Of a DNA stretch of 64,000 bases, positions 2,179 to 57,195 are shown piece after piece. The position numbers and the translations under genes are program-made. Every line of letters begins with the position of its first letter. Position 1 is the stretch's first letter. The notes below the pieces were generated by a model. It saw only the letters and a program-made list of their open reading frames with translations, was not told the DNA's origin and ran no database searches. Origin of the DNA: Patescibacteria group bacterium (GTDB lineage Bacteria; Patescibacteriota; Patescibacteriia; UBA2591; UBA6264); the NCBI GenBank assembly GCA_028713575.1, contig JAQTOB010000002.1, positions 1,371 to 65,370 of the forward strand. The letters run 5' to 3'.

Positions 2179-3441
2179 ATGTCTGGAAAATTAGAGATAA
2201 TCATGTTCAATATGTCCGGTTATTCGGAATGGCAAAAGGGGATAGCTAATCGGAATTATCACCTTTTCCGTAAGTTATTGGAAAATGATGCTGTCGGCCG
2301 GATTATTTGCGTTGATTTTTTGCCCTTTACCTTTAAAAGGGCGATTAGAAATTATTGGCAAAATATTTTTAAGGGAGAAAAAGGAGAAGTGATTTTTCGC
2401 GATTTAACCACTCGGGTGATTAGAATCCCTCATTCACAAACTGAAGTTTATGTTTTTTCTACCATTGATTCCATTTTTTCTTCCGCCATGGTTATTAAAA
2501 AAATAAACAAAGTTTTAAGTAAAATATTCCAGTTATCCAATTACCCAACAACCCGATTGCCAAGAGTAATTTGGTCCTGCTTTCCTATGTTTGTTGATTA
2601 TTTTTCCGCCAAAGGCGGATCCGCCTCTGGCGGAGAGAATTTACCTCACGATTTAACAGTTTTTGATGCCGTGGATAATTGGATTGAACATCCGTCTTTT
2701 ATAAAACAAAAAGAAAAATTAAATAAAAATTATCAAATAATCGCGGGAAAAAGCGATTTAATTTTTACGGTTTCGGAAAATCTATTGGGATTTTTTAAAA
2801 ATTTTGGACGAGAGAAAGATGTTTATTGGATTGCTAATGGCGTAGACGTTGTTCACTTTATGGAGAAATCAACAACGAAGCCAGAAGATTTAAAGAATAT
2901 TCCCCGGCCAATTATCGGTTATGTGGGGATTATTCAGCAAAGATTAGACATAGATTTGTTAGAATATTTGGCGGAGAAAAATCCAGAAAAATCATTTGTT
3001 TTAATCGGACCGCTTTGGCCGGTTTATTTTCAAAAGATAAGAAAGCCGGCAATAGAAATTCAAAGGCTAAAAAAATACAAAAATATTTATCTTTTGGGTC
3101 AAAAAAATTATTTGCAAACGCCGGATTACATCAAAAATTTTGATTTAGCTATTAGTCCGCATCGTTTGAATAATTTTGTTAAATATACCAATTCACTTAA
3201 AGTTTTAGAATATTTAGCTTGCGGTCAGCCCGTGGTTAGCACTCCGCCCTCAGGAGTAGAGAGGTTTTCTCATTTGGTTTATATCGCCCAAGATTATCAG
3301 GATTTTAATAAAAAAATGGAAATGGCTTTAAGAGAAAATAATGAAGAATTGAAAAATCAAAGAATCAGTCAAATGAAAAATCAGGATTGGAGTTTTAAAA
3401 TAGAAGAAATGATTAAATTGATTAAGGAAAAATTATTATGA
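2179..3441 (+). CDS. glycosyltransferase, GT-B fold (family 1/4-like)
   Basis: 420-aa ORF whose C-terminal half resembles the GT1 C-domain (…GYVGIIQQRLDIDLL…FVLIGP…YLLGQKNY…). It lies in the glycan cluster and overlaps the next gene by 4 nt. Confidence 0.55.
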   Translation: MSGKLEIIMFNMSGYSEWQKGIANRNYHLFRKLLENDAVGRIICVDFLPFTFKRAIRNYWQNIFKGEKGEVIFRDLTTRVIRIPHSQTEVYVFSTIDSIFSSAMVIKKINKVLSKIFQLSNYPTTRLPRVIWSCFPMFVDYFSAKGGSASGGENLPHDLTVFDAVDNWIEHPSFIKQKEKLNKNYQIIAGKSDLIFTVSENLLGFFKNFGREKDVYWIANGVDVVHFMEKSTTKPEDLKNIPRPIIGYVGIIQQRLDIDLLEYLAEKNPEKSFVLIGPLWPVYFQKIRKPAIEIQRLKKYKNIYLLGQKNYLQTPDYIKNFDLAISPHRLNNFVKYTNSLKVLEYLACGQPVVSTPPSGVERFSHLVYIAQDYQDFNKKMEMALRENNEELKNQRISQMKNQDWSFKIEEMIKLIKEKLL

Positions 3442-4328
3442 CTCTTTCCATAATTATTGTTAGCTGGAACGTTAAGGCCCTTTTAGAAAGGTGTCTGGAT
3501 TCCGTTTTCCGTAATTTAAATGATTTAGAAGCGGAAATTTTAGTTGTGGATAATAATTCTCAGGATGGGAGCCAAGAATATTTAAAGAGTAGACAAAGTT
3601 ATAATTTGAAAATTATTTTAAATAACAGAAATTTTGGATTTAGCCAAGCCAATAATCAAGCCCTAAAACAGGCAAAAGGGGAGTATATTTTATTTCTTAA
3701 TCCAGATACGGAAATTATAGATGATGTTTGTCGGCAGGCAATCCAACTTTTACAACAAAACAAAGACTGGGGATTAATTGGTTGTCAGTTAATTGGTCCG
3801 GACAATAGAATTCAGTCCTCAGTAAGAACTTTCCCCAGCGTCGGGAATCAACTGATTCTTCTTTTAAAGCTCCAGTATTTGCTGCCCGGCCTTAGGACAT
3901 TGAAAAGATATTTTCGTCAGGATTTCAATTATGACCAGATTGCTGAGGTTGACCAGGTGGCAGGAGCATTTATGATGACAAAAAAAGAAGTTTTGGAACA
4001 GATAGGGAGTTTTGATGAGCGCTTCCATTTGTGGTTTGAAGACGTTGATTTTTGCTATCGGTTAAAACAAGTTGGTTATAAAATTATTTACTATCCTCGG
4101 AGAAAAGTAATTCATTATGGCGGACAGAGTTTTAATCAACTTTTATCCAAAGAGAGACAAAAAATTTATAACCACAGTTTACGGCTTTATTTTAAAAAAC
4201 ATTTTCCTCCTTTTTATTATTGGCCCATTATTTTAGTTCAGCCATTAAGTTTATTTTTGGCTCGGTTAAGCGAAGTTTTTTCTGTTACAAAAAAAGAACA
4301 AATAAAAAAAAGATTAAAAGTCAACTAG
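3438..4328 (+). CDS. glycosyltransferase family 2
   Basis: N-terminal MTLSIIIVSWN…VVDNNSQDGS matches the GT2 DxD/NxS pattern, with FEDVDFCYR in the C-terminal region. Confidence 0.8.
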   Translation: MTLSIIIVSWNVKALLERCLDSVFRNLNDLEAEILVVDNNSQDGSQEYLKSRQSYNLKIILNNRNFGFSQANNQALKQAKGEYILFLNPDTEIIDDVCRQAIQLLQQNKDWGLIGCQLIGPDNRIQSSVRTFPSVGNQLILLLKLQYLLPGLRTLKRYFRQDFNYDQIAEVDQVAGAFMMTKKEVLEQIGSFDERFHLWFEDVDFCYRLKQVGYKIIYYPRRKVIHYGGQSFNQLLSKERQKIYNHSLRLYFKKHFPPFYYWPIILVQPLSLFLARLSEVFSVTKKEQIKKRLKVN

Positions 4329-4335: not shown

Positions 4336-5772
4336 ATGAAAGAGGATAATTTAAAATTAAATTTAGGAATAATGATTTTTTGTTTTTTTCTTTTTCATTT
4401 GTTTTCTTTTTTGGCTTATCAACATCCTTGGTTAAATAGCTTATTTTTTTGGTTAATTATTATTTTAGCGATTATTTTTAGTTTATATAGATTAGAATAT
4501 GGATTTTTATTTCTGATTTTTGAATTTTTTTCCGGTCATGAAGGCCATTTATTTGAATTTGTCGGACTTTCTTTAAGGTGGGCTTTATTTTTAGTGATTA
4601 TTTTTATTTGGTTTGTTCGGCGATTCAATCAGGAGAAGAAAAATTTTTTTCGACGCCTTATTCAACCAAAAATATCTTTATTTTTTTCAATTTTTTTACT
4701 GATTGTTTTTTTGTCTTTTATTCAGGGGTTGGTTCAAAATGACCCAGTTTTGGCGATTAAAGATTTTATTAATTATTCATATTTTTTCTTGATTTTTCCT
4801 TTAATGGATGTTGTTAAGAACAGGTGGTTTCAGGAAAAAACTTTCAAGATCGGTAAAGCGGCGACCATTGGCATTACCTTAGTAACGATTTTTGTTTTTG
4901 TTCTTTTCGTTTCAGGTTTAGTTAATGTCCATGGTCATTTTTATTGGTGGTGGCGAGGCACGGTAATCGGTAAGGCCACAGATACGGGTACTGGATTTTT
5001 CCGCATTGTCAGTTCGGCGCATCTTTTAATGGTGCCAATTTTTTTGCTTTATCTGAGTTTTTTGTTCGTGCCGGAAATTAAAAAAAAGAAAACCTGGTTT
5101 TGGCTGGCTTTTTTGTCCAGTGTGGTTCTTCTGATTAATTTTTCCCGCGCTTATTTTCTTGGCATTGTCATTGGCTTATTTTTTTTAGGCAGGAGTTTAC
5201 CTTGGAGACGCTGGCTATGTTTTTCTCTAACTACGATTTTGGTATTATTTTTTGAGTTTTTTATTATTTTTGGTTTGGCCACCGGCGAATGGGGGAATCA
5301 AGGCGCGTTATTTTTCGGGAAGAGAATCCAAACCGTGGTGACGCCCGGCGAAGAGGTGAGTTCTTTAAGCCGGATGAACATCCTGCCCCAGTTGCTGAGT
5401 CGGTTGGAAAAAGAACCGATATTTAGCCAGGGGCTGGGCACTACTGTTTCCTATTTTGATCCGGTTACGCAGATGCAGAAATCCACTTTTCATTTAGACT
5501 GGGGTTATCTGGAGATGTGGTTAGAACTAGGCTTTTTCGGTTTGTTGTTTTATTTTTTTCTTTTATTTAATATTTTTTATCAGGGATGGCGAAAATTGAA
5601 AGAACTGACCCAAATTTGGGGGAAAAGGCTAATTATCGGCTTGCTAGCCGGTTTGGCGAGTCTGATGGTTGCCACCTTGACCGGTCCATTTTTGTTTCAT
5701 CCCTTGGGAATATTTTACGTGGTTTCAACCGCGGCCATAATTAACATTTTAAAAAATGAAAACTCGGCTTAA
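4336..5772 (+). CDS. O-antigen ligase/polymerase-like (Wzy_C-type) polytopic membrane protein
   Basis: 478 aa with roughly 10-12 TM helices and a large loop region. It sits in the glycan cluster between GT genes. Confidence 0.45.
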   Translation: MKEDNLKLNLGIMIFCFFLFHLFSFLAYQHPWLNSLFFWLIIILAIIFSLYRLEYGFLFLIFEFFSGHEGHLFEFVGLSLRWALFLVIIFIWFVRRFNQEKKNFFRRLIQPKISLFFSIFLLIVFLSFIQGLVQNDPVLAIKDFINYSYFFLIFPLMDVVKNRWFQEKTFKIGKAATIGITLVTIFVFVLFVSGLVNVHGHFYWWWRGTVIGKATDTGTGFFRIVSSAHLLMVPIFLLYLSFLFVPEIKKKKTWFWLAFLSSVVLLINFSRAYFLGIVIGLFFLGRSLPWRRWLCFSLTTILVLFFEFFIIFGLATGEWGNQGALFFGKRIQTVVTPGEEVSSLSRMNILPQLLSRLEKEPIFSQGLGTTVSYFDPVTQMQKSTFHLDWGYLEMWLELGFFGLLFYFFLLFNIFYQGWRKLKELTQIWGKRLIIGLLAGLASLMVATLTGPFLFHPLGIFYVVSTAAIINILKNENSA

Positions 5773-6920: not shown

Positions 6921-7730
6921 ATGGAATTATCAATCATTATCCTTAATTACAATCATAAAAATCTTTTAAAAAATTGCTTAAAAAGTTTGCAAGAAGCGAG
7001 TATTAAATCGTCTTATGAATTGATTATTACAGATAATGGCTCAAATGATCAGAGTCAGGAATTTTTATCCCAATTAAAAAAGGGGAATTCTGAAATCAAA
7101 GTTATTTTTAATTCTAAAAACTTGGGTTATAGTCGGGCGAATAATCAGGCCATTAAATTGGCACAAGGGAAATATATTTTAATTTTAAATCCTGATATTA
7201 TTGTTTTCCCTCAATCAATTGATAAATTGAAAGAATTTTTACAAGAAAATTCCCAGGTCGGCGTAGTGGGTCCGCAGCTGCTCAATCCGGATAAAAGCAT
7301 TCAGTATTCTTGTTGCCGTTTTCCTAATTTATTGACACCTTTATTGCGAAGAACCTTTTTAGGCTGCCGGCCTTGGTTTAAAAAGGAATTAGGCCATTAT
7401 TTAATGTTTGATTTTGACCATCAACAAACCCGAGAAGTTGATTGGCTCATCGGCGCTTCTTTAATGATAAAAAAGGAGGTTTTTGAGAAAGTTGGTTTAT
7501 TTGACGAGCGCTATTTTGCTTATTTTGAAGACGTGGATTTTTGTCGCCGGGTCCGGGAAGCCGGCTTTAAAGTTATTTATTTCCCTCAAACGCAGATGAT
7601 TCACTTTCATCAACGGCTTTCAGCCGATGGCTCGTTTATCCATTCCTTGTTTTCTAAAGCGACGTGGATTCACATTAAAAGCGCCTTAAAGTATTTTTGG
7701 AAGTGGCGAAAAAATAAAAAAGTGTTATAA
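6921..7730 (+). CDS. glycosyltransferase family 2
   Basis: MELSIIILNYNHKNLLKNCLKSL…ITDNGSNDQS…FEDVDFCRR carries GT2 motifs. Confidence 0.8.
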   Translation: MELSIIILNYNHKNLLKNCLKSLQEASIKSSYELIITDNGSNDQSQEFLSQLKKGNSEIKVIFNSKNLGYSRANNQAIKLAQGKYILILNPDIIVFPQSIDKLKEFLQENSQVGVVGPQLLNPDKSIQYSCCRFPNLLTPLLRRTFLGCRPWFKKELGHYLMFDFDHQQTREVDWLIGASLMIKKEVFEKVGLFDERYFAYFEDVDFCRRVREAGFKVIYFPQTQMIHFHQRLSADGSFIHSLFSKATWIHIKSALKYFWKWRKNKKVL

Positions 7731-7746
7731 TTATTTTGATAAATAT

Positions 7747-7820
7747 TCGGGGGTCGTCTAATGGCAGGACATCAGGTTTTGGTCCTGAGAATTGGGGTTC
7801 GAGTCCCTGCCCCCGAGCCA
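7747..7820 (+). tRNA. tRNA-Gln (anticodon TTG), CCA encoded
   Basis: Hand-folded cloverleaf: acceptor tcggggg/cccccga, D-stem gtct/ggac, anticodon stem tcagg/cctga with loop ttTTGgt, T-loop ttcgagt, discriminator G then CCA. The T-stem needs two G·U pairs. Confidence 0.7.
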
Positions 7821-7865
7821 TAAACCAGAACGAAGTTCGGTTTAGAATATATTAGAATATATATA

Positions 7866-8330
7866 AAAAAATACACAGGGGAAAAAAATACACAGGTTCA
7901 ACCTGTGTATTTCTAACCTATGCATTTCTGATTTTAAAAGGTATGATATAATTAAAATATGGGTTGGATATAAAAAAATACACAGGTTGAACCTGTGTAT
8001 TTTTAATTTATGCATCTCTAATTTTTGACTTTTTGACCAGGGGACTGTCCCCAAAAGACGTCCTTCTACAATCCCCATTTTTGACCAGGGGACTGTCCCC
8101 AAAAGACGTCCTTCTACAATCCCCATTAGTGCTGGATTTTGGAACGATTTTTAAAAAATAGTCGAATATCGACTACTCTATATGAAATGAAAAAAGGCGT
8201 CAGGAACCTTTTAATGAGTAATCTTTTATAATATAATTAAAATATGGGTTGGATATAAAAAAATACACAGGTTGAACCTGTGTATTTTTAATTTTTTAAA
8301 AATAGTCGAATATCGACTACTCTATATTTA
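7866..8330. repeat. mosaic of short repeats between tRNA-Gln(TTG) and the next gene
   Basis: Four components read directly. A 27-bp palindrome aaatacacaggtt[g/c]aacctgtgtattt occurs three times (7886-7912, 7976-8002, 8261-8287). A perfect 64-bp direct repeat lies at 7946-8009 and 8231-8294. A 48-bp unit is tandemly repeated twice at 8030-8125. A motif tttaaaaa(a)tagtcgaatatcgactactctata containing a 17-bp palindrome occurs twice (8147-8183, 8293-8329). Confidence 0.85.
8030..8125. repeat. 2 x 48-bp tandem repeat tttttgaccaggggactgtccccaaaagacgtccttctacaatcccca
   Basis: Two identical adjacent units. Each unit is homologous to the 5' ~45 bp of the ~210-bp elements at 54385 and 56325. Confidence 0.85.
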
Positions 8331-8424
8331 AGAAAGAAGTTGTTTATTATTTTGTTTGCCGCCTTTTTTATTTTTTCTGAGGTGGTATAATAAAACTGGA
8401 TTAATAATTATTAATATTAATATT

Positions 8425-9045
8425 ATGAAAATAAAATTAATGACAAAAAATATTATTATTTTAGTGGTTATTTTGGCAGTAATTTTTCTTTTAATGATGT
8501 TTAAAACGAAGGAGGATAGAAAAGAATTTGACTTGAATGAAATAGCCAGTTTTGAAGAATGCGTGAATGCCGGTTATCCAATAATGGAATCATATCCTCG
8601 GCAATGTATAACGTCGGATGGTCAGATTTATGTTGAAGAACTGCCCGTTTCCGGAGATTTTATTGTCGGTGGCGATGCGGATGAGCATGGCTGTATTGGT
8701 TCAGCCGGTTATTCTTGGTGTGAACCGAAAAATAAATGTCTGAGGATTTGGGAAGAAGCGTGTTATGAAAGCGCAGGACAAGAGATTCAATATATTTTAG
8801 CTGGAAAATATGACCGCCCGGTCAATGAAGTAAGAATAAATATTTTAAAAGAAAAAGATGATTTTGTCAGCGGTAGTATTTTATTCGGTCAAGGCGGACC
8901 AGGAGAAGGGGGAATGTTTTTAGCGAAAAAAATAAATAATATTTGGCAACTTTTGTATGATGGCAACGGCAGTGTGGATTGTGAAAATTTAAGAACAGAA
9001 CATGAATTTCCCGAAGAGATATTAAGACCGAATTTTTGCGATTAA
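8425..9045 (+). CDS. hypothetical secreted or membrane-anchored Cys-rich protein
   Basis: The ORF track starts at 8356, but ATG at 8425 gives MKIKLMTKNIIILVVILAVIFLLMMF, an N-terminal signal/anchor, followed by a Cys-rich domain. It shares a ~30-aa motif (C..AG…M.S.P.QC.T.DG.I) with the protein at 55273-56289. Confidence 0.45.
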   Translation: MKIKLMTKNIIILVVILAVIFLLMMFKTKEDRKEFDLNEIASFEECVNAGYPIMESYPRQCITSDGQIYVEELPVSGDFIVGGDADEHGCIGSAGYSWCEPKNKCLRIWEEACYESAGQEIQYILAGKYDRPVNEVRINILKEKDDFVSGSILFGQGGPGEGGMFLAKKINNIWQLLYDGNGSVDCENLRTEHEFPEEILRPNFCD

Positions 9046-9525: not shown

Positions 9526-9539
9526 AAAAGATTTTAAAA

Positions 9540-9566
9540 GTTTGGGAACTTAGTTCCCAAGCTTTG
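9540..9566 (+). terminator. putative terminator hairpin, second copy of the gtttgggaacttagttcccaa motif
   Basis: Near-identical to the 1956-1984 hairpin, with a weaker T-run downstream. Confidence 0.4.
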
Positions 9567-9604
9567 TTATTATCAAACAAGTAAAATTTTAGTATAATAA
9601 AGAC

Positions 9605-22663: not shown

Positions 22664-22699
22664 AACTTCTTGCAGGTCGCACCTGCAAGAAGTTTTTTA
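22664..22699. terminator. bidirectional intrinsic terminator between convergent genes
   Basis: 14-bp stem aacttcttgcaggt / acctgcaagaagtt with loop cgc, then TTTTTT. A related palindrome occurs at 28685-28711. Confidence 0.65.
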
Positions 22700-23810: not shown

Positions 23811-24048
23811 TCCCGTGTACAAGATGAGTATATAGGTAACGCTTTTATTAGTCTGGGGTCTGACCCCTAAATTATGCCCCTAAAATAGTGATTAATAAAG
23901 CGTTTTAGAAAAAAAATTGAGATTTGTAACGATTTTGATTGATTTTATTTGATTCATTATACCACTCACCAAAAATAAAAATAAAAAAAAAAGACCAGGT
24001 AGCCTTTTAATTAATATAGATTAAAGGGATTAGACGTTTTTATTTTTT

Positions 24049-46487: not shown

Positions 46488-47747
46488 TTATATCTTTAAT
46501 TTAGAATAGAGGGGGTGACTTCGCGCCAATTCTTTTACTTGTCGCGCGGTTTTTTTGAGAATTACCGGATTTTCCGGGTTGTAAACAACTTGACTGATTA
46601 ATTGGCCGATGATTTTCATTTCTTTTTCTTTAAATCCGCGTGTGGTCAGGGCTGGCGTTCCTAACCTGATTCCCGAGGGATTAAAAGGCGTCCGCTGGTC
46701 ATAAGGAATCATATTTTTATTAACATAAATACCAACCGCTTCTAAAGATTTCTCCGCTTGTTTGCCCGTTACTCCAGTTTTAGTTAAATCAACCAGAATT
46801 AAATGATTGTCTGTGCCGCCAGAAATAAGAGTTAAATTATTATCCTTTAACGATTGAGCTAAAGTTTTGGCGTTTTTTACAATCTGTCGGGCGTATTTTT
46901 TAAAACTCGGCAAAGAGGCTTCTTTTAATGCCACGGCAATAGCGGCGGTAGTGTGATTATGGGGTCCGCCCTGAAAACCGGGAAAAACGGTTTTATCAAT
47001 CATTTCCGCGTATTCTTTTTTACACATAATCATGGCACCCCGCGGTCCGCGCAAAGTTTTATGAGTAGTGGTAGTAACGATGTCAATAAAAGGAAAAGGA
47101 TTAGGATGAACGCCGCCGATAATCAGGCCGGCCAGATGGGCAATGTCCGCCATGCTAACAGCCTTGACTTTTTTGGCAATCTCGGCGAATTTTTTGAATT
47201 TAATTATCCGCGGATAAGCCGTAGCCCCGCAAATAATAATTTTCGGACGATATTTTTTCGCCAGTTTTTCCACTTCTTTATAGTCTATCAGATGATTTTT
47301 TGGATTGACGCCGTACTGAACAAAATTAAAGATGCGACCGGAAAGATTAACTTTATGCCCGTGAGTCAGATGGCCGCCATGCGCCAAGTTCATGCCCATA
47401 ATGGTGTCGCCGGGCTGTAACAAGGAAAAATAAATTTCTAAATTAGCCGGAGAACCAGAATATGGTTGGACATTGACGTGTTCGGCATAAAACAGCTTTT
47501 TAGCCCTTTCTATCGCCAATGTTTCTATTTCATCAATGAACTGATTACCCCCGTAATATCTTTTCCCGACATAGCCCTCTGAATACTTATTGGTGAGAGG
47601 GGACCCTAGGGCTTCTAAAACTGCTTCAGAAACGAAATTTTCAGAGGGAATCAATTCCAAGCCCTGTCTTTGGCGGTTTATTTCTTTTGCCAATGATTTC
47701 GCGATTTGGGGGTCTGTTTTTTTTAACATGGTTAAATTATATCTCAA
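46488..47747 (-). CDS. glyA: serine hydroxymethyltransferase
   Basis: THKTLRGPRGAMI, the PLP-lysine region, and the 419-aa length. Confidence 0.9.
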   Translation of the reverse strand: MRYNLTMLKKTDPQIAKSLAKEINRQRQGLELIPSENFVSEAVLEALGSPLTNKYSEGYVGKRYYGGNQFIDEIETLAIERAKKLFYAEHVNVQPYSGSPANLEIYFSLLQPGDTIMGMNLAHGGHLTHGHKVNLSGRIFNFVQYGVNPKNHLIDYKEVEKLAKKYRPKIIICGATAYPRIIKFKKFAEIAKKVKAVSMADIAHLAGLIIGGVHPNPFPFIDIVTTTTHKTLRGPRGAMIMCKKEYAEMIDKTVFPGFQGGPHNHTTAAIAVALKEASLPSFKKYARQIVKNAKTLAQSLKDNNLTLISGGTDNHLILVDLTKTGVTGKQAEKSLEAVGIYVNKNMIPYDQRTPFNPSGIRLGTPALTTRGFKEKEMKIIGQLISQVVYNPENPVILKKTARQVKELARSHPLYSKLKI

Positions 47748-47827
47748 ACAGTTATTTTGTCAATTAATATTGACAAAGTTTGAATTTTATGGCATATTTA
47801 TTATATATTTTAAGAAAAGGAGGAAAA

Positions 47828-48019
47828 ATGGGCACAAGAAAAAAAAATGAGGATGGCCTCTTGGTAGAGGCGTCCTCGCAAAAGCCCTATTCAAAGGGCT
47901 TTGACGATCGCATCAATGAAAGATGCGACTCAACGCCTCCTGAAGGCGTTGATTATTGGTGGTGGAAAATCCACTACCAACATGGGCAAGAGGATGCCCA
48001 GAAAATTTTGGACGAGTAA
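47828..48019 (+). CDS. hypothetical small protein (63 aa), relatively GC-rich
   Basis: A perfect SD AAGGAGG sits 6 nt before ATG 47828 (the ORF track begins at 47780). A strong terminator lies downstream. No recognisable motifs. Confidence 0.3.
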   Translation: MGTRKKNEDGLLVEASSQKPYSKGFDDRINERCDSTPPEGVDYWWWKIHYQHGQEDAQKILDE

Positions 48020-48031
48020 CTCATCTCGTCC

Positions 48032-48070
48032 AAAAAAAAGCTTCTGACCTCAGAAGCTTTTTTTATTTTC
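48032..48070 (+). terminator. intrinsic terminator
   Basis: aaaaaaaagcttctga-cc-tcagaagcttttttt is a perfect extended stem followed by a U-run. Confidence 0.7.
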
Positions 48071-48103
48071 TTTTTTTTGCTATACTATAATTTATACCAA
48101 GAA

Positions 48104-48175
48104 GCCGCTATCGTCTAGTGGTTAGGACACATGGTTCTCAGCCATGAAACCAGGGTTCGACTCCCTGTAGCGGTA
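48104..48175 (+). tRNA. tRNA-Glu (anticodon CTC), no encoded CCA
   Basis: Acceptor gccgcta/tagcggt (G1·U72), D-arm gtct-agtggtta-ggac, anticodon stem catgg/ccatg with loop ttCTCag, T-arm caggg-ttcgact-ccctg, discriminator A. Confidence 0.8.
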
Positions 48176-48234
48176 TTTATTGCCTTAATTTATATTTAAT
48201 TTATAATATAAGTATTATTCATAAACATAAACAT

Positions 48235-48732
48235 ATGCCTCATGAAATAAAAGAACATCCGATTTCTTCAGAGATTCCTCAACCAGAGTCTTCTTTAGAA
48301 ACCCCGTCTTCTTTAGAAAAAAAAGAACAAGAATCAAAATTTATTGAACCGGCGAAAACGGATGAGATTTTAAAAAAAATAAAAAAAGCTTTACCGGGGA
48401 TTAAAACCAAACTAACCACTACTATTGTCAAAGAAAAAAGCCAAACAGTGAAAGAAATAGAAAATATTTTATCCGAAGACATGAATGAGATTTATCAGAA
48501 TTTGTCGCCAGACATTAAGCAGGAATTTAAAAGAAGGGGCGAAGAGACGGCGTTTAAAATAGAACAATTGATTTGTCAGGTTAAAATCGCGGTTTATAAA
48601 ATAGTGGATTTAATTAAACAATGGCTATTAATTGTGCCGGGGGTGAATAAATTCTTTTTAGAACAAGAAACAAAAATAAAAACAGATAAAATTTTAGCTT
48701 TATCGGAAAAGGAAAAAAAGAATAAAGTTTAA
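48235..48732 (+). CDS. hypothetical charged protein (165 aa)
   Basis: Lys/Glu-rich, no TM and no recognisable motifs. It precedes the VirD4/TraG-like ATPase. Confidence 0.35.
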   Translation: MPHEIKEHPISSEIPQPESSLETPSSLEKKEQESKFIEPAKTDEILKKIKKALPGIKTKLTTTIVKEKSQTVKEIENILSEDMNEIYQNLSPDIKQEFKRRGEETAFKIEQLICQVKIAVYKIVDLIKQWLLIVPGVNKFFLEQETKIKTDKILALSEKEKKNKV

Positions 48733-48742
48733 TTAATATAAT

Positions 48743-51292
48743 ATGGGGTTAGATATTTATTCAAATATTTTGTATTGGCGCGAGCGAGGATTTTTTAATC
48801 TTAAATTTTGGCTCCCTTTTTTTGTTTTAATATTATTTTTAATTTTATTCTTCTTTTTAAAAAAATATTTAAGAAGGTCGGCTCAATATAAGTTTTCTTT
48901 TCAGCGCGCCATTCTTTTAGTCACGGTGCCTAAGATAAAAATGGATAAAGAAGAAAAAGAGAAAACCCCCAAAGAAATGTTGCAACCAATAGAAAATTTT
49001 TTTGATAACATTGGCGGATTAAAAGCACAAAAAGGATTTAAAACTTGGTTTTTAGGCCGTTCAGACCATTTTTCTTTTGAAATACTTTCAGACAAGCAGG
49101 GTATTATTTCTTTTTATGTGGTCGTGCCGCGAAATTTGCAAACGTTTTTTGAACAACAAGTTCACGCGCAATATCCAGCGGCGCAAATAGAAGAAGTAGA
49201 TGACTATAATGTTTTTTTACCCCACGGAGAAGTTGTTTGCGCCAGTCTTACCTTAAGAACTTATTCCATGTTCCCAATTAAAACCTATAATAAGACAGAA
49301 ACTGATCCTTTAAATGCCATTACTAATTCTTTGAGCCGAATTGCGGAGGAAGATTCAGCCGCGATTCAAATTATGGTTCGTTCGGCTCAGTCAGGTTGGC
49401 GTCAACCCGGCATCAAAGTTGCCCTAGAAATGCAACAAGGCAAAAAATTATCAGAGGCGCTAAAAAATATGAGCGGAGGTTTATCAAAATTTTTTAGTTT
49501 TTTAACCGATTTTATTTTTCCCAAATCGCAAAAAAAACAAGATAAAGAATTAGATAAGCCGCATCAACTTTCACCCATGGAACAAGAAGTCGTTAAGACC
49601 ATTGAAGAAAAGGCGAGCAAGGCCGGAATGGATGTAAATATTAGAATTGTGGTTTCTGCCCGCGATAAAGGATTGGCTGAAAGCTATTTAGATAACATTG
49701 TTAATGCTTTTGCCCAATATACGGGTTATGAATACGGCAATGGATTTAAAAAAGCAAAAATGAATAAAAACGAGATTATTAGGAATTTTATCTACCGGAA
49801 TTTTAATGAGAATATAAGTTTTGTTTTAAACACAGAAGAAATGGCCAGTATTTATCATTTTCCATTGCCGACAACAGAAACGCCAAATATTCGTTGGTTA
49901 ATGGCGAAAAAAGCGCCGGCGCCGATTAACATTCCGCACGAAGGCTTGTTTTTAGGTTACAATATCTATCGCGGTCAAAAGACAGCCATTAAAATTAAAA
50001 GAGAGGACCGTCGTCGACATATGTATGTTATTGGTATGACCGGTACAGGCAAATCTTGGTTTGCCGAAGGCTTGGCTATGCAAGATATTGCCAATGGCGA
50101 GGGTATCTGCTTTATTGACCCGCATGGAGACGCTATTGGTCATATTTTAGAAAGAATTCCCAAGAATAGAGCCGAAGACGTAATTCTTTTTGACCCGGGC
50201 GACTTAACTCGGCCATTAGGATTGAATATGTTAGAATATGATTTTTCAGAACAAAAAACTTTTGTCATTAATGAAATCATGAATATTTTTGACAAGCTTT
50301 ACGATTTGCGCGCAACCGGTGGTCCGATTTTTGAACAATATTTTAAAAACGCTTGTCATTTGGTTATGGATGATATAGCTTCAGGTTCTACTTTATTGGA
50401 AATTCCTAAAGTTTTAGCTGATGATGAATTTAGAAGATATAAGCTTTCCAAATGCAAAACCTTAATGGTTAAAGAATTTTGGGAAAAACAAGCTTTAAAG
50501 GCGGGGGGTGAAGCTTCTTTACAAAATATGGTTCCTTATATTACTAGTAAATTGACACCGTTTTTGACTAATGAATTTATGCAACCTATTATTTCCCAGC
50601 AAAAAAGCAGTTTGAATTTTAGAGAGGCCATGGATAATAAAAAAATAATTTTAGCTAAATTATCTAAAGGTAAAATTGGTGATACCAATGCCTATTTGTT
50701 GGGAATGATTATTGTTGGCAAGATTTTAATGTCTGCTTTGAGTCGTGGAGATATGCCGGAAGAAAAAAGAAATGATTTTTATTTATACATTGATGAATTT
50801 CAAAACTTTTTAACCGAAAGTATGCAGGTCATTTTATCCGAAGCGAGAAAATACCGTTTATGTTTGAATATTATTCACCAGTACATCGGCCAGTTGGTTA
50901 AAAATAGTGATACTAAATTTAAGGACTCCATTTTTGGCAACGTGGGGACAAAAATAGCCTTTCGTATCGGCGTGGACGATGCTGAAGATTTGACTAAAGA
51001 ATTTGCCCCGGTTTTTAATGAATACGACTTTTTAAATATGCCTCAATATAGCGCTTTTGTAAAACTTTTGATTGACAATGCCAATCCGCCGGGTTTTAAT
51101 ATTTCTACGGTTCCTTTTGACCAAATCCCCGGAGTGCCACCGGCTAATCCGGAAATCGCAAAAATTATTAAGGAATTATCTCAATTAAAATACGGCAAAA
51201 CTTTACCCATGATTGAACGGGAAATAAGTCAAAGAAGTCAAATTATTAATCAATTAAAGCAAACAACAGATGGTAATTTATCGCAAATATAG
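48743..51292 (+). CDS. membrane-anchored P-loop ATPase, VirD4/TraG/TrwB coupling-protein-like (or HerA/FtsK-like)
   Basis: N-terminal TM helix, Walker A GMTGTGKS and Walker B FYLYIDEFQNF. The C-terminal region …LCLNIIHQYIGQL… resembles the TraD/TraG C-terminal domain. Confidence 0.5.
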   Translation: MGLDIYSNILYWRERGFFNLKFWLPFFVLILFLILFFFLKKYLRRSAQYKFSFQRAILLVTVPKIKMDKEEKEKTPKEMLQPIENFFDNIGGLKAQKGFKTWFLGRSDHFSFEILSDKQGIISFYVVVPRNLQTFFEQQVHAQYPAAQIEEVDDYNVFLPHGEVVCASLTLRTYSMFPIKTYNKTETDPLNAITNSLSRIAEEDSAAIQIMVRSAQSGWRQPGIKVALEMQQGKKLSEALKNMSGGLSKFFSFLTDFIFPKSQKKQDKELDKPHQLSPMEQEVVKTIEEKASKAGMDVNIRIVVSARDKGLAESYLDNIVNAFAQYTGYEYGNGFKKAKMNKNEIIRNFIYRNFNENISFVLNTEEMASIYHFPLPTTETPNIRWLMAKKAPAPINIPHEGLFLGYNIYRGQKTAIKIKREDRRRHMYVIGMTGTGKSWFAEGLAMQDIANGEGICFIDPHGDAIGHILERIPKNRAEDVILFDPGDLTRPLGLNMLEYDFSEQKTFVINEIMNIFDKLYDLRATGGPIFEQYFKNACHLVMDDIASGSTLLEIPKVLADDEFRRYKLSKCKTLMVKEFWEKQALKAGGEASLQNMVPYITSKLTPFLTNEFMQPIISQQKSSLNFREAMDNKKIILAKLSKGKIGDTNAYLLGMIIVGKILMSALSRGDMPEEKRNDFYLYIDEFQNFLTESMQVILSEARKYRLCLNIIHQYIGQLVKNSDTKFKDSIFGNVGTKIAFRIGVDDAEDLTKEFAPVFNEYDFLNMPQYSAFVKLLIDNANPPGFNISTVPFDQIPGVPPANPEIAKIIKELSQLKYGKTLPMIEREISQRSQIINQLKQTTDGNLSQI

Positions 51293-52367
51293 GCCAAAAA
51301 CTTTTAAGGAAGTAATTGGTCAAGAAAACATTGTGCAAATTTTAGAAAACGAAATTAAAAGTGATAAAGTTGCTCATGCTTATCTTTTTACCGGACCTCG
51401 CGGTTTAGGTAAAACCACTTTATCAAGATTAATGGCCAAAGCAGTTAATTGTTTAAATAGAAAAAACGGAGAATCAGAACCATGTAATAAATGCGACCAT
51501 TGTCAAAGCATCAACAATAATCGTTTTATAGATTTGATTGAACTTGATGCCGCTTCACAAACGGGGGTGGATAATGTGCGAGAAAACATTATTGCTTATT
51601 CAAGAATTCCTCCGGCTCAAGGCAAATACAAAGTTTTTGTCATTGATGAATGCCACATGCTTTCTTTGTCCGCCTTTAATGCCTTGTTAAAAATATTAGA
51701 AGAGCCGCCTAAATATGTTATTTTTATTCTTGCTACTACAGAAATTCATAAATTGCCAGAAACCATTATTTCTCGATGCCAGAGATTTGATTTTAACAAA
51801 GTGAGCATGGAAAAAATTGTGCAAAGAATGGAAACAATTATGAAGCAAGAGAAAATAAAAGTGGATAAAAAAGTTCTTCAAAATATCGCTAGTCGTTCTG
51901 AAGGTTGTGTCAGGGATGCGGAAAGTCTTTTAGGTCAATTAATGTTTTTAAATGATAAAAATATTACCGAAAAAGAGGCCAGTCTGATTTTGCCTTTGGC
52001 TCAGACCGATGCTATTGTCAAATTTTTGCAATTTATTTTTAAAAAAGACAAAACCGAAGCGGTTAAATTAATTAATGAACTTTTAGAACAGGGGATAAAC
52101 TTGGACCAATTTGTCGTTGATTTAATAGAATTTTTAAGAAAGATTATGCTGATTAAAATCAAGGCGGTTAATAAAGATTATTGGCTCCAAGATGAAAATT
52201 TTCAAAAAAAAGCAGACGAAATGGCGGGAAAAACAGAATTAAAAACCTTAATTTCTGCCCTTGATGTCTTTATCAAAACCAAAATTCAACTGGGTTACAG
52301 CGAAATTCCGCAGTTGCCTCTGGAACTGGCTGTTTTAAAAATTTGCGAAGAAGCACAGCCTAAATAA
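51270..52367 (+). CDS. dnaX: DNA polymerase III subunit gamma/tau (short form)
   Basis: GPRGLGKTT P-loop, Zn-module CNKCDHC and SRC arginine finger. At 365 aa it contains only domains I-III. Confidence 0.85.
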   Translation: MVIYRKYRPKTFKEVIGQENIVQILENEIKSDKVAHAYLFTGPRGLGKTTLSRLMAKAVNCLNRKNGESEPCNKCDHCQSINNNRFIDLIELDAASQTGVDNVRENIIAYSRIPPAQGKYKVFVIDECHMLSLSAFNALLKILEEPPKYVIFILATTEIHKLPETIISRCQRFDFNKVSMEKIVQRMETIMKQEKIKVDKKVLQNIASRSEGCVRDAESLLGQLMFLNDKNITEKEASLILPLAQTDAIVKFLQFIFKKDKTEAVKLINELLEQGINLDQFVVDLIEFLRKIMLIKIKAVNKDYWLQDENFQKKADEMAGKTELKTLISALDVFIKTKIQLGYSEIPQLPLELAVLKICEEAQPK

Positions 52368-52510
52368 TAAATAAAAACAAGCCATGGCCCACAACGGGCG
52401 ACGCCTGTTTTTAGTAGATACTATGAATAATAGTATCTGAATATAGAATAACAATTTGACACAAAAGGTCAAGCGCTAATCTGTGGGGAACTAAAACTAG
52501 TTAACTTTCC

Positions 52511-53692
52511 ATGAAAACAAACGTTGACGAAAAACAAATTAAAGGATTATTAACTCGAGGAGTTAATGAAGTAATTGATTTTAGTCATTTAAGAAAACGT
52601 TTGTTATCGGGAGAAAAATTAAGAATCAAATTAGGCATTGACCCTACCAGCCCTCATATTCATTTAGGAAGGGCGGTTTCTCTTCTTAAATTAAGAGATT
52701 TTCAAAATCTTGGGCACAAGGTGGTATTTATTATTGGCGATTTTACTGGTGTTGTTGGCGACACTTCTGACAAAGAAAGCGAACGCCCCATGCTTTTTAA
52801 AAAACAGGTGGAAGAGAATATGAAAACGTATATCAGGCAAGCTGGGAAAATTTTAGACATGGAAAAAACCGAAATTTGTCATAATTCTACGTGGCTAAAA
52901 AAACTTGGCTATGAAGAAATAGGAAAACAGGCGAATCAGTTTTCTTTAGCTGAGTTCATCAATCGGGAAAACATTAAAAAGCGACTAAACTTGGGGACCA
53001 GGGTTTCTTTAAGAGAACTTCTTTATCCTTTAATGCAGGGATATGACAGCGTTGAAGTGAAAGCTGACGTGGAGCTCGGGGGAACAGACCAGAGATTTAA
53101 TTTGCTGGCAGGTCGGACCTTGCAGGAATATTATGGTCAAAAACCTCAGGACGTAATGATGACTAATCTTATTTTAGGTACGGACGGCAGAAAAATGAGT
53201 TCCAGTTGGGGTAATACTATCAATATTGTGGACAAACCAAGTGAAATGTTCGGTAAAATAATGAGTTTAACCGATGATTTAATCATAACCTATTTTGAAC
53301 ACTGCACCCGGGTTGATATGGATAAGGTGAAAAAATATAGCGAAGAATTGAAGGCCGGTAAAAATCCCAAAGATGTCAAAATGGATTTAGCTTATGAGAT
53401 TACCAAGATATACTGGGGAGAAAAAAAATCAGAAGAAGCCAAAGATTATTTCATCACTGTTTTTCAAAAAAAGGGAATTCCGCAAGAAATATCGAAAATG
53501 AAATTGGCGAACAAAAATATTCTTGAGATTTTGGTTTTAAGTAAATTGGCAAAAAGTAAAAGCGATGCCAGAAGGCTAATAGGTCAAAAAGGCGTAACAG
53601 TTGATGGAAAAACAATAGAATCAACAGAAGAAACAGTTAAAAAGGGTAGCATTATCCAAAAAGGAAAAAGATATTTTGTAAAAATCATTTAG
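52511..53692 (+). CDS. tyrS: tyrosine--tRNA ligase
   Basis: HIGH-like PHIHLG, a KMSSS variant of KMSKS, GGTDQRFN, and a C-terminal S4-like RNA-binding domain. Confidence 0.8.
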   Translation: MKTNVDEKQIKGLLTRGVNEVIDFSHLRKRLLSGEKLRIKLGIDPTSPHIHLGRAVSLLKLRDFQNLGHKVVFIIGDFTGVVGDTSDKESERPMLFKKQVEENMKTYIRQAGKILDMEKTEICHNSTWLKKLGYEEIGKQANQFSLAEFINRENIKKRLNLGTRVSLRELLYPLMQGYDSVEVKADVELGGTDQRFNLLAGRTLQEYYGQKPQDVMMTNLILGTDGRKMSSSWGNTINIVDKPSEMFGKIMSLTDDLIITYFEHCTRVDMDKVKKYSEELKAGKNPKDVKMDLAYEITKIYWGEKKSEEAKDYFITVFQKKGIPQEISKMKLANKNILEILVLSKLAKSKSDARRLIGQKGVTVDGKTIESTEETVKKGSIIQKGKRYFVKII

Positions 53693-53725
53693 ATGCCGGG
53701 TCGTCTAACTTGCCCCGCCAATTTT

Positions 53726-54061
53726 ATGTCATATCTTTATATTTTAAAAAATAGATTAGGCAGGCATTATATCGGGATTACTAAATTAGAACCAAGAGAA
53801 AGATTAAAACGACATAATCAAGGAGACGTTTATTCAACAAAATCCGGGAGGTCCTGGAAAATAATTTGTCTAGAAAAATTTGAAACTCTTAAAGAAGCAA
53901 GAGAAATGGAAAAAATGATAAAGAGATGGAAAGGCGGAAATGCATTTAAAAAGTTTCTCTGCAAAACTGCCGGGTCGTCTAATGGCAGGACAACGGATTC
54001 TGGCTCCGTTTATCTTGGTTCGAATCCAAGCCCGGCAGTTTTGCAGAAAAACAAGATATAA
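53726..54061 (+). CDS. GIY-YIG nuclease family protein (YhbQ/UPF0213-like). The ORF reads through tRNA-Gln(CTG) before reaching a stop
   Basis: MSYLYILKNRLGRHYIGIT…RLKRHN…EAREMEKMIKRWKG covers the GIY/YIG/Arg/Glu motifs. The last ~30 codons are encoded by the tRNA gene itself. The ORF track begins at 53693. Confidence 0.55.
   Translation: MSYLYILKNRLGRHYIGITKLEPRERLKRHNQGDVYSTKSGRSWKIICLEKFETLKEAREMEKMIKRWKGGNAFKKFLCKTAGSSNGRTTDSGSVYLGSNPSPAVLQKNKI
53968..54038 (+). tRNA. tRNA-Gln (anticodon CTG), no encoded CCA
   Basis: Acceptor tgccggg/cccggca. A 19-nt block gtcgtctaatggcaggaca is identical to tRNA-Gln(TTG). Anticodon stem acgga/tccgt with loop ttCTGgc, T-arm cttgg-ttcgaat-ccaag, discriminator G. 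Confidence 0.8.
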
Positions 54062-54259
54062 ATTTGGCGGGGTGAACAGGACAACGGATTCTGGCTTCGT
54101 TTATCTTGGTTCGACTTGTCCCGTTAAAGGCGGGAATCCAATCTTGGCAGCCATCCTTCGCCAAGGCTACGAAATGGCTAAAACTATGTTGTTGTATTTG
54201 TTGCTTTGAATTTTAGGTAGTCCGGAACTTTAGTGAAGGATACCAAGCCCGGCAGTTTT
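54062..54259 (+). pseudogene. disrupted second tRNA-Gln copy and duplicated tRNA 3' end (att-like direct repeats)
   Basis: 54077-54114 matches tRNA positions ~20-57 (37/38) and is preceded by a D-arm-deleted remnant tggcggggtgaa. 54243-54259 repeats the tRNA 3' end ccaagcccggcagtttt exactly (17/17). A ~128-bp unrelated insert separates the two pieces, and a scrambled gggaatccaatcttggcag lies at 54132-54150. Confidence 0.6.
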
Positions 54260-54384
54260 TTATTGCTTCCGTTCCTCAAAACCTTCAGCCCGCTATATAA
54301 ATAGCGACGAAGACACTGATGCTGAGGGAAGCGCCGACGAACGAGAGTGAAGAGGGACTGAGCTTAACAGAGCGAATGTAATTA

Positions 54385-54597
54385 ACTTAAGAAAGGGGTC
54401 TGTCCCCAAAAAATGCCTTTCTAAAATCCTTATCAGTGTTGGATTTTAAGACGATTTTTAAAAAATAGTCGAATATCGACTACTTTAGAAAAATTAAATT
54501 CACCAAAATGGGACCGCCTTTGGAAAATGGCATACAGGGGCCGGACATAGATTTTTTAAAAGTCAGACCCCTTAAAGGGAAGATTGAGGAGGTTTAA
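54385..54597. repeat. ~210-bp conserved structured repeat element, copy A
   Basis: It is ~96% identical to 56325-56528. The 10-bp terminal inverted repeat (possible P1 stem) is aaggggtctg (54393-54402) / cagacccctt (54564-54573). Internal hairpin aaatcc…ggattt. A 17-bp palindrome tagtcgaatatcgacta lies at 54466-54482. It ends with an RBS-like gaggagg just before the downstream ORF. Confidence 0.85.
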
Positions 54598-54774
54598 CAT
54601 CTGATGTGATGGTGAGTACCTACGAGGTGAGACCTCGTAGGGGTGATGAAAAATTCCCGTTTTTGTTTTTTGGCCCAATTTCGCCTCTATCTTTTACAGG
54701 GTCGCCACTTTTTATTGAGGTATATAAAAATACGAAATTATTTAAATAATTTGCGGATTAAAAAATTTAATTTT

Positions 54775-55107
54775 ATGAAAACAATCAAATGGTTTGCTCG
54801 AATAATCGCATTATGTATTCTGGTGTTCGCTTTGCCGTTTTATTTTGGCTACGGTAATCCATTGCCGTTTGCTAATCCGAATTATTCTTTGTGGGAGAAT
54901 GTTGCACTATCTATGATGCCACTGGTTTTTATCGGTTTAGCCTTGGGCTGGAAGTATCCAAAAATCGCAGGCTGGCTTATTATTAGTGCAATTGCAATTG
55001 GTTTTATCGTTGGACTTTTAACAGAAGCAAACCTCAGTATCAATCTGGCAGTTCCTATCATTCCAGGAATTTTGTATTTAATAGATGGGTATAAAAAAAA
55101 TGAATAA
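54775..55107 (+). CDS. hypothetical small membrane protein (110 aa)
   Basis: ATG 54775 gives MKTIKWFARIIALCILVFALPFYFG… with 3-4 TM helices. The upstream in-frame extension from 54643 overlaps the repeat element and looks non-coding. Confidence 0.4.
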   Translation: MKTIKWFARIIALCILVFALPFYFGYGNPLPFANPNYSLWENVALSMMPLVFIGLALGWKYPKIAGWLIISAIAIGFIVGLLTEANLSINLAVPIIPGILYLIDGYKKNE

Positions 55108-55276
55108 ATATATTAAGATAATACTTTCTATTCTGGCGGTATTATTCGGGTTATTTTTAATTGTATTTGGCGGATACGATGACAGTCCTGGAGCACAAGG
55201 ACTTGGACTTATATTAGTTATTACTACAGTCATTATCGTAATTAGAAGCAGAAAGAAAAACAACAATCCACTATGA
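55085..55276 (+). CDS. hypothetical small membrane protein (63 aa)
   Basis: Two TM helices and a basic C-terminal tail. Confidence 0.3.
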   Translation: MGIKKMNKYIKIILSILAVLFGLFLIVFGGYDDSPGAQGLGLILVITTVIIVIRSRKKNNNPL

Positions 55277-56289: not shown

Positions 56290-56324
56290 AATAAGTAATT
56301 TTTCGGTATAATAGACTCAAGAAA

Positions 56325-56528
56325 GGGGTCTGTCCCCAAAAAATGCCCTTCTAGAATCCTTATCAGTGTTGGATTTTAAGACGATTTTTAAAAAATAGTC
56401 GAATATTGACTACTTTAGAAAAATTAAATTCACCAAAATGGGACCGCCTTTGGAAAATGGCATACAGGGGTCGGACATAGATTTTTTAAAAGTCAGACCC
56501 CTTAAAGGGAAAATTGGGGAGGTTTGAC
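56325..56528. repeat. ~210-bp conserved structured repeat element, copy B
   Basis: Same element as 54385-54597. A TATAAT lies at 56307-56312 just upstream. The internal palindrome carries one mismatch (tagtcgaatattgacta, 56396-56412). It ends in an RBS-like ggggagg before ORF 56546/56588. Confidence 0.85.
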
Positions 56529-56587
56529 CTCAGTAATATAGGGACGTGACAGGGTTCGGCCCAGCAAATTATTGTAAAATAATATAC

Positions 56588-57034
56588 ATGAACAAAATAA
56601 CGCTCCATAATCAATGGGTTGTCAAAGCTCCCATAAATGATGTATTCAGAATAATGACCGACTTTGAAAAATTTCCGAAGAATTTTCCAAAGGTTGCTGA
56701 ATCAATACAGATTAATAAACGGGAAGGAAATTATTTGGGAATGGACGCAACCGTAAAATCATTCGGCAAAAGGTTTCAAGTAAAGATGAAAACTCAAATC
56801 CTCCCAGGGAAGGGCTTTATCTCAGATAATGACAGTTATCAGTTTGGGACTTCCGGACATGAAGAGCTGCTGCTTTCCGAACACGTTGAAGGAACTTTAA
56901 TTGACTATACCTATCAGGTCACCATTCATAAAAAATGGCTGAGTATAATCGCTGTACCTCTGCTGCGCTGGTATTCAATGAAATACTGGGAAAAGGCGGT
57001 TATTGATCAGCTTAAAAAGACCCTTGAGAAATAA
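56588..57034 (+). CDS. SRPBCC-superfamily (polyketide cyclase/START-like) protein
   Basis: MNKITLHNQWVVKAPINDVFRIMTDFEKFPK… is typical of the Bet v1/SRPBCC fold. Start chosen at ATG 56588, as the ORF track's 56546 start lies inside the repeat. Confidence 0.55.
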   Translation: MNKITLHNQWVVKAPINDVFRIMTDFEKFPKNFPKVAESIQINKREGNYLGMDATVKSFGKRFQVKMKTQILPGKGFISDNDSYQFGTSGHEELLLSEHVEGTLIDYTYQVTIHKKWLSIIAVPLLRWYSMKYWEKAVIDQLKKTLEK

Positions 57035-57077
57035 TTGAAAGTAGGAGTATGCAGGGGTTCAATTCCTACATTTTTTC

Positions 57078-57106: not shown

Positions 57107-57195
57107 ATAATTGTTAGATTAAAAGATTCCTAAAAGGGGAGTTTTTTAATTCAAGGTCGATCTTTAACAAGTTAAAGCAAAAAAGAGGCACGCCT

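Follow-up and report, generated by a model that had tools for sequence, protein, structure and literature searches.

Systems that couple repetitive extragenic palindromes (REPs) or REPINs to a REP-associated tyrosine transposase (RAYT), also named REPtrons, were reportedly described by Nunvar in 2010. The REPs of these REP/REPIN-RAYT systems (Bertels & Rainey 2011, PMC3116915; Ton-Hoang/Messing 2012, PMC3479197) are defined by a GTAG/GTGG tag beside a hairpin; canonically, the tag is unpaired and lies 0-2 nt 5' of a hairpin with a stem of 7-20 nt, a loop of 2-5 nt and a GC-rich base (PMC6006769). TIRtrons, or TIRYT, are RAYT-like genes with long terminal inverted repeats (TIRs) that carry GGGGWSAS and occur as dimers and clusters (Di Nocera 2013, PMC3733652; Quentin 2018, PMC6006769), and TIRYT correspond to subclass 2.1 of Quentin 2018, for which C-terminal helix-turn-helix (HTH) domains have been reported (PMC6006769). 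Here we analyzed a mosaic of repeats at positions 7840-8355 of a 64,000-nucleotide stretch of a Patescibacteria genome (GCA_028713575.1, contig JAQTOB010000002.1, positions 1,371 to 65,370; hereafter the window), directly downstream of a tRNA-Gln(TTG) gene. With a probability of roughly three in four, the mosaic is a cluster of gene-less ends of a small RAYT-type Y1 element, that is, of non-autonomous REP/REPIN- or TIR-like repeats. A RAYT-type repeat system is a known kind of bacterial mobile repeat, encountered here in a tiny genome of the candidate phyla radiation (CPR).

The initial annotation of this locus listed a 27-bp palindrome, a 64-bp direct repeat, a tandem 48-mer and a palindrome motif, TAGTCGAATATCGACTA, and all four are present where and as it described them, far above chance. 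The 48-mer and TAGTCGAATATCGACTA are parts of one module of ~95 nt, in which hairpin M1, GGGGAC(T/A)GTCCCC, is followed by a variable stem-loop and by hairpin M2, (A/G)TAGTCGAATATCGACTAC, which reads (A/G)TAGTCGA-ATA-TCGACTAC. The start of M1 is separated from the start of M2 by 70 nt in all full copies except that of contig L021 (68), and the 57 nt between the hairpins vary in sequence, while their stem-loop tends to persist. TAGTCGAATATCGACTA was found at 8159-8175, 8303-8319 and 54466-54482, and with one mismatch at 56396-56412; a search allowing up to three mismatches returned seven matches against 0.08 expected, all at these positions, with minus-strand matches at three of them. A profile search identified three full modules in the window (8087-8179, 54393-54486, and 56323-56416) and two partial matches, a lone M2 at 8291-8323 and a duplicated M1 end at 8039-8079. 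The homology that had been claimed between this locus and elements at 54-56 kb is confirmed by an identity of 85.7% over 91 nt (E 7e-16) between 8087-8177 and both 54394-54484 and 56324-56414, so both tRNA-Gln loci of the window do carry members of one repeat family. The loops of M1 (CTG/CAG) and M2 (AATAT/ATATT) are flipped among copies with identical stems (L002, L009, and L010 compared with the window), as is expected of DNA palindromes. The plus strand at 23854-23909 may hold a fourth, diverged copy, of the GGGGTCTGACCCC type (nhmmer E 0.0057, a weak match).

At 54.4 and 56.3 kb, the module occurs as an inverted doublet and thus resembles a REPIN. Each doublet belongs to an element that had been reported to occur twice near tRNA-Gln(CTG), with a length of 223 nt in place of the ~210 bp given. 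The first element (wB, 54379-54601, plus strand; nhmmer E 1.6e-24 on the plus and 1.7e-5 on the minus strand) contains the module 54393-54486 and a degenerate inverted module, 54545-54462, with M2 common to both. The outer ends of the 223-nt elements, AAGGGGTCTG and CAGACCCCTT, are inverted repeats, and in wB the right terminal inverted repeat GTCAGACCCCTT (about 54562-54573) is complementary to the left AAGGGGTCTG. The second element (wC, 56309-56531, plus strand) is 95% identical to wB and has one substitution in M2 (ATTGACTA), at a position where strain L004 has ATCGACTA.

The modules constitute a family with a fixed geometry that is present in several lineages and flanks genes for Y1 transposases, also in the metagenome-assembled genome (MAG) that matches the window. 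In contig L014, an open reading frame (ORF) at 2547-3149 on the minus strand encodes a 200-aa protein with a Pfam Y1_Tnp match (E 2e-14) and has inverted modules on either side (2458-2548 and 3168-3256), with M1 outermost. Used as a query, this protein retrieved 354 relatives at E <1e-10, among whose source names are 'transposase [Patescibacteria group bacterium]' and 'REP element-mobilizing transposase RayT'. One relative, P0003 (73% identical), is encoded on L040, which is contig 42 (3,957 bp) of MAG GCA_028711035.1. This MAG matches the window, whose organism is a Patescibacteria-type MAG, through its contig 1 (99.85% identity to window positions 46511-59692). On L040, a module at 1439-1532 (M1 GGGGACTGTCCCC, M2 GTAGTCGAATATCGACTA) stops a few nucleotides before the ATG of the Y1 gene (1539-2141), and an inverted type-II module (GTAGTCGAAATAGTTCTA…, 2235-2146) follows the stop codon. 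This contig holds further modules, and at 3548-3668 a module and the initial 22 nt of the Y1 ORF have been copied together. An M1-type module lies directly upstream of the gene and points at it in all eight distinct Y1 loci examined (L014, L022, L028, L032, L034, L040, L041/L043, and L045), and an inverted partner downstream was detected in five of these and recognized by eye in two more. The GGGGTCAGACCCC type adjoins the Y1 genes of L022, L028 and L034. Both ends of the element carry GTAGTCGAA on the gene-sense strand, and inner ends of either kind retain GTAGTCGA. Dispersed copies of the modules that flank Y1 genes were found in the window, at other positions of L040, and in L001, L002, L009, L010, L018, and L021, and a further relative of the protein, P0017, is encoded in the MAG to which L001 and L002 belong. 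The density ranges from three full copies in the 64-kb window, in which tblastn detected no Y1 gene, to five to six in the 4-kb contig L040.

The class of the Y1 protein was assessed by profile comparisons. The NCBIfam model REP_Tyr_transpos gave 58 bits (below its 80-bit cutoff), compared with 19 bits for the IS200 model (55-bit cutoff). The best match in the PDB for a profile of twelve family members was Escherichia coli TnpA-REP (4ER8, E 7e-4), with the aligned pairs PNHFHL/PEHMHC, HLFQDRF/IWQPRFW, and YIDLNAVRAGLV/YIYINPVKHGWV, and this profile did not match the TnpA of IS608 or IS200. Four residues do not vary: the histidines H62 and H64 of the HUH motif (PNHFHL), Y121, and N125. The family thus possesses the HUH motif and the catalytic tyrosine with an asparagine four residues on that mark the TnpA-REP class, and is nearer to RAYT than to IS200 TnpA. 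Pfam recognized only Y1_Tnp in the 200-aa protein, over residues 14-123 (E up to 0.1; a second Y1_Tnp score in the family was E 4.5e-16), and no C-terminal HTH domain (Bac_DnaA_C, HTH_23, or HTH_28).

The system resembles REP/RAYT pairs in that a Y1/HUH transposase of the TnpA-REP class, apparently encoded at one locus per genome, is flanked by hairpin repeats that are also dispersed between genes. Many module copies are inverted doublets, as in REPINs, a conserved GTAG stands at the foot of M2, as in REPs, and the copies form mosaics with other palindromes, as in the bacterial interspersed mosaic elements of E. coli. In contrast to a REP, which is a GC-rich hairpin of 20-40 nt, the module comprises three hairpins over ~95 nt at a fixed spacing of 70 nt, and its host is a member of the Patescibacteria (CPR). 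The long inverted repeats around the Y1 gene are reminiscent of TIRYT, and the outermost motif, GGGGACAG/GGGGTCAG, fits GGGGWSAS: in all copies, M1 reads one or the other of these on one strand, in agreement with GGGG[AT][CG]A[CG]. As in TIRtrons, the repeat families are moderately abundant and occur in dimers and clusters. However, the 200-aa protein lacks the C-terminal HTH of subclass 2.1 as far as Pfam detects it, and the published TIRYT examples come from Acidobacteria, Stenotrophomonas and similar organisms. With IS200/IS605 elements and palindrome-associated transposable elements (PATEs), the element shares its size of ~800 bp, its one Y1 gene and the hairpins near each end, and a single-strand 'peel and paste' mode is plausible. 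It differs from IS200/IS605 in a protein nearer to TnpA-REP, an apparently single-locus gene and mostly inverted ends, and no target tetranucleotide of the IS200 type emerged, the left flanks being merely A-rich. The mechanism class is ordinary, while the lineage appears to be one without an earlier description of such systems: in our literature search, no paper connected Patescibacteria/CPR with RAYT, REPIN or tyrosine transposases, an absence that is no proof of novelty, and searches with module sequence strings returned only an unrelated paper on antisense oligonucleotides.

Pattern scans of public contigs located the module in a species-representative MAG (L001, L002) and in 13 metagenome contigs; one of these, L015, is GC-rich, contains the M2 core only and was treated as a chance match. 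No M2 match was obtained in viral contigs. Full modules scored E 1e-18 to 1e-26 with nhmmer in the window, L001/L002, L009, L010, L018, and L021, and L014 contains more diverged full-length modules (E 4e-9 and 5e-7). The forms are graded, from full elements of ~800 bp (L014, L040) through gene-less composites of ~300 nt (L018, L010, L001) and 223-nt doublets (wB, wC, L021) to single modules (the full module of the mosaic, termed wA, as well as L1a and L2). In L001, a module (5180-5273) begins at codon 55 of a GIY-YIG ORF (5018-5368), whose Pfam match extends no further than position 52 of the 78 in the profile, so that the ORF is cut short where the module begins; these Pfam coordinates were used because a direct protein comparison of the two GIY-YIG ORFs was uninformative. 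The module of L001 has the same neighborhood as in the window, with genes for tyrosyl-tRNA synthetase (TyrRS) and the GIY-YIG protein and with a degenerate tRNA-like fragment, which suggests an old, inherited insertion. The assembly GCA_964531505.1 (CAZHDT01), from which L001, L002 and L028 derive, is labeled 'uncultured Gammaproteobacteria bacterium', a label that may be wrong since the repeat family, the Y1 clade and the TyrRS/GIY-YIG neighborhood are common to it and the Patescibacteria MAG. Contigs L003 and L005-L008 end at repeats.

The mosaic itself begins behind the tRNA-Gln(TTG) gene (7747-7820, plus strand; found with ARAGORN, Rfam tRNA score 53.9 bits), a neighbor of the repeat cluster that does not belong to the repeat family. 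The tRNA is followed by a trailer hairpin (AAACCAGAAC/GTTCGGTTT, 7821-7852, plus strand) that is 90.6% identical to L021 2840-2809, directly after the tRNA-Gln(TTG) gene of that contig. The spacer behind the tRNA measures 605 nt in the window compared with about 130 nt in the relative L021, which shares the trailer hairpin without these repeats. The 27-nt palindrome, AAATACACAGGTTNAACCTGTGTATTT, is present without mismatches at 7886-7912, 7976-8002, and 8261-8287, while none of 100 shuffled sequences gave any match, and its arms reach 29-31 nt once the flanking A and T runs are included. The first copy (P1, 7884-7912, no strand assigned) consists of an A-run, a stem of 11-13 bp and a T-run, the shape of a two-way terminator, and a half copy lies just 5' of it at 7861-7879. 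The second (P2, 7974-8004) and third (P3, 8259-8289) are contained in the two copies of the 64-nt direct repeat (7946-8009 and 8231-8294, both plus strand), which are 100% identical over 64 nt at a spacing of 285; a second comparison extended the repeat to 68 nt at 99%, and a diverged third copy was found at 7852-7919. The Logan contig L003 stops exactly at 8009, indicating that the assembler broke at the 64-nt repeat.

The module follows with a stuttered left end (8022-8125, plus strand), made up of a partial TTTTTGAC at 8022-8029, recognized by eye, and two 48-mers that are 100% identical (8030-8077 and 8078-8125). Hairpin M1, here GGGGACTGTCCCC, occurs once in each 48-mer (8040-8052 and 8088-8100). 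Comparable stuttered partial M1 copies exist in L040 (about 60-110 and 3470-3545), L041, and L043, and the runs in L040 (…AAAAAGGGGAC…) are a stutter of the same kind as the tandem 48-mer. The full module wA (8087-8179, plus strand; nhmmer E 5.8e-25) comprises M1, the variable stem-loop and M2 and is followed by a tail (…AAGGCGTCAGGAACCTTTTAATG, 8180-8226, plus strand) that resembles, by eye and unscored, the tails of L1a and L2 in another genome. Behind the second 64-nt copy lies a partial second element (8291-8414, plus strand), composed of a lone M2 (8303-8319) and a 'centre' piece with an extended -10 box, TGgTATAAT, at 8383-8391; between the end of the element and the start codon (ATG) of gene 8425-9045 lie 10 nt. 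This element is 86% identical over 124 nt, box included, to L018 7125-7004, which lies between two inverted modules and forms the centre of the L018 composite. Thus, the sequence just 5' of gene 8425-9045 is repeat-derived, and the centre piece may supply the promoter of this gene. Scans with promoter and terminator consensus sequences returned counts about equal to those in shuffled sequence, and the two terminator-like calls in 7600-8600 are one of the palindromes and the second M2. The exact duplications of the 48-mer and of the 64-nt repeat are recent local events, and the site, for which recombination or insertion had been suggested, is best read as a pile of inserted and rearranged repeats. 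The minus-strand ORF 7842-8126 spans the palindromes and both 48-mers, which accounts for its duplicated peptide, MGIVEGRLLGTVPWSK; it has no Pfam match and no conserved frame and had rightly been called an artefact. A coding explanation of the modules was likewise rejected, as in our reading of the sequences no ORF is conserved across them and frames that are open in one copy are closed in others.

The proposal of a tRNA-Gln-associated hotspot was not supported, since the family is not specific to tRNA-Gln and it is the link to Y1 genes that defines it. Of the full copies in the window, two lie close to a tRNA-Gln gene (270 and 355 nt downstream) and the third (56323-56416) is 2.3 kb away. 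No tRNA was found in the module-bearing contigs L014, L018, L040, L041, L043, and L045, the L022 copy adjoins a tRNA-Leu, and most loci with modules are without a tRNA. Association with tRNA-Gln is thus not a property of the family and does not indicate new tRNA-Gln biology. The two genes that had been described as paralogous, Cys-rich secreted proteins behind each tRNA-Gln have only a 45-aa Cys-containing motif in common (44% identity), and the one at the second locus is the third gene after the tRNA. That second locus contains a further, 5'-truncated copy of tRNA-Gln(CTG), in which 54077-54114 is 97% identical to 53986-54023 and 54243-54259 is 100% identical to 54026-54042, the T-loop region being split by about 128 nt. 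Four Logan contigs stop within this copy or immediately ahead of it, and the GIY-YIG ORF 53693-54061 runs into the intact tRNA-Gln(CTG). The truncated copy could be the scar of an integration or homing event.

Several observations weigh against the assignment of the mosaic to a RAYT-type element. M2 departs in part from the canonical REP: in type I its GTAG is paired, with CTAC, inside a palindrome with an AT-rich stem of 7-8 bp and a 3-nt loop, type-II ends are non-palindromic, and M1, with a GC stem of 5-6 bp, is without GTAG. Outside M1 and M2, identity among the copies of the window, and between these and the L040 copies, is no more than about 65-85%; the window copies are old and may no longer be mobile. 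No transposition event was observed, and the window and L004, the sole close strain pair, differ by 20 substitutions and no indel, with no presence/absence difference. At one Y1 locus (L028) the flanking modules are direct, not inverted, and the assignment of L040 to the organism of the window is based on MAG binning and on the 99.85% identity of another contig. The 27-nt palindrome and the 64-nt repeat were seen only at this locus in all sequence fetched and are possibly unrelated to the Y1 system. Finally, six of the nine base pairs of the middle stem show compensatory change, which would also suit a role as RNA.

The modules could instead be the ends of an ordinary selfish insertion sequence of the IS200/IS605 type, the short copies being derivatives of the PATE or miniature inverted-repeat (MITE) kind, and not parts of a single-copy RAYT-type system. 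A Y1 gene between two ends spanning ~800 bp has the size of IS200, the Pfam domain is named 'Transposase IS200 like', the presence of GTAGTCGAA at both ends on one strand is reminiscent of left- and right-end hairpins, and contigs with Y1 genes are mostly short, which suggests repeats. However, the bit scores and the structural match given above favor TnpA-REP over IS200 and IS608, and the flanking modules are mostly inverted. Moreover, each Y1 protein looked up was found in one gene context, over 3-23 contigs from many samples, which a single-copy RAYT-like gene fits better than a multi-copy insertion sequence, and we consider this alternative unlikely. Attachment sites left behind by integrative elements that target tRNA-Gln genes would account for repeats 3' of both of these genes and for the integration-type scar at 54077-54114 and 54243-54259. 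Yet the modules have no sequence in common with the tRNAs, no integrase is encoded nearby and the family is far from any tRNA at most loci, which leaves this explanation hardly credible.

Two further explanations attribute a function in expression to the modules. A structured non-coding RNA or a cis-acting leader co-transcribed with neighboring genes would agree with the folding of the wB-type 223-nt element, which exceeds that of shuffled sequences (z -3.7 plus, -3.3 minus strand), with the retention of the three hairpins in 81% of cells compared with 35-49% for slid partners, with the compensatory changes in the middle stem, and with the orientation of all window copies along their downstream genes. 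On the other hand, the percentage paired is barely higher than after column shuffling (81.0 versus 78.2), M1 is almost invariant, and M2 is either an invariant palindrome or, in a third of the copies, a non-palindromic type-II form, so that neither hairpin shows covariation. Both strands fit equally well: RNAalifold gave the same three hairpins at equal energy and preferred neither. Rfam searches, with the gathering score on the whole window and with E up to 10 on both loci, returned only tRNAs and chance matches. As the modules also occur in either orientation, as truncated or stuttered copies, within an ORF and on both sides of a transposase gene, an RNA gene is very unlikely. Termination and stabilization at the RNA level are known side effects of REPs, and by analogy such effects are possible for the modules. 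About as improbable, if not slightly more so, is that M1 and M2 are operators of a transcription factor that co-regulates the genes 3' of both tRNA-Gln genes, which is close to the shared regulatory module of the initial annotation. Near-invariant palindromes at a fixed spacing of 70 nt are a typical feature of sites bound by proteins, genes 8425-9045, 54775-55107, and 56588-57034 each have a copy upstream, and the piece 8291-8414 contains the TGgTATAAT box. But the three genes are not related to one another (8425-9045 has no Pfam family, and the other two are DUF7670 and polyketide-cyclase-like), modules elsewhere adjoin unrelated genes in either orientation and surround a transposase gene, and one copy truncates the GIY-YIG ORF.

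The preferred reading, a RAYT-type element with non-autonomous ends, suggests the following course of events. The complete element of ~800 bp would consist of a module, the gene of the 200-aa Y1/HUH tyrosine transposase (RAYT/TnpA-REP class) and an inverted module. On the model of REP/RAYT and IS200/IS605, the transposase would recognize the M1 and M2 hairpins and GTAGTCGA on single-stranded DNA, and cutting and rejoining at the hairpins would allow short copies to spread into tolerant intergenic DNA; we infer that the Y1 protein mobilizes the modules by such a single-strand mechanism. A full module and a partial element would have inserted 3' of tRNA-Gln(TTG), at 7840-8355, and the locus would then have been reshaped by recent local duplications into the exact 48-mer, the exact 64-nt repeat and the three terminator-shaped palindromes, which presumably terminate transcription of the tRNA. 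A more specific version, an old, vertically inherited RAYT/TIRYT-like system of the Patescibacteria with a three-hairpin cassette, pieces of which were co-opted as promoters or terminators (for example at 8383-8391), is conceivable, although we regard it as doubtful.

These results account for intergenic repeats of a class that breaks short-read assemblies of CPR genomes and gives rise to spurious ORFs such as 7842-8126 on the minus strand. If the picture holds genome-wide, populations of RAYT-type repeats would also be present in ultra-small and streamlined genomes, in which non-coding repeats are not expected to persist, and the 200-aa Y1 enzyme and two short hairpins would represent a defined pair.

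Some additional repeats were observed in the window. A dispersed motif, GGGACGTGACAGGGT(T)CGG(A/C)CC…, lies just outside module ends in three lineages (window 56540-56566; L018 about 6792, minus strand; L021 about 936 and 1646, minus strand). Between the two 223-nt repeats (54602-56308) are three genes, for a DUF7670 membrane protein, a 63-aa membrane peptide and a 338-aa secreted protein, and this layout between direct repeats could permit deletion or duplication by recombination. Two more families of near-identical palindromes with A/T runs and the shape of two-way terminators were found at 1950-1982/9536-9568 and 22665-22694/28683-28712; those at 1950-1982, 9536-9568, and 22665-22694 directly follow the end of a gene and may be further REP-like repeats. 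A 62-nt repeat (23749-23810/24148-24209) is 89% identical between its copies and resembles, on the minus strand, a shared TTGACA promoter and ribosome-binding leader of two small minus-strand genes.

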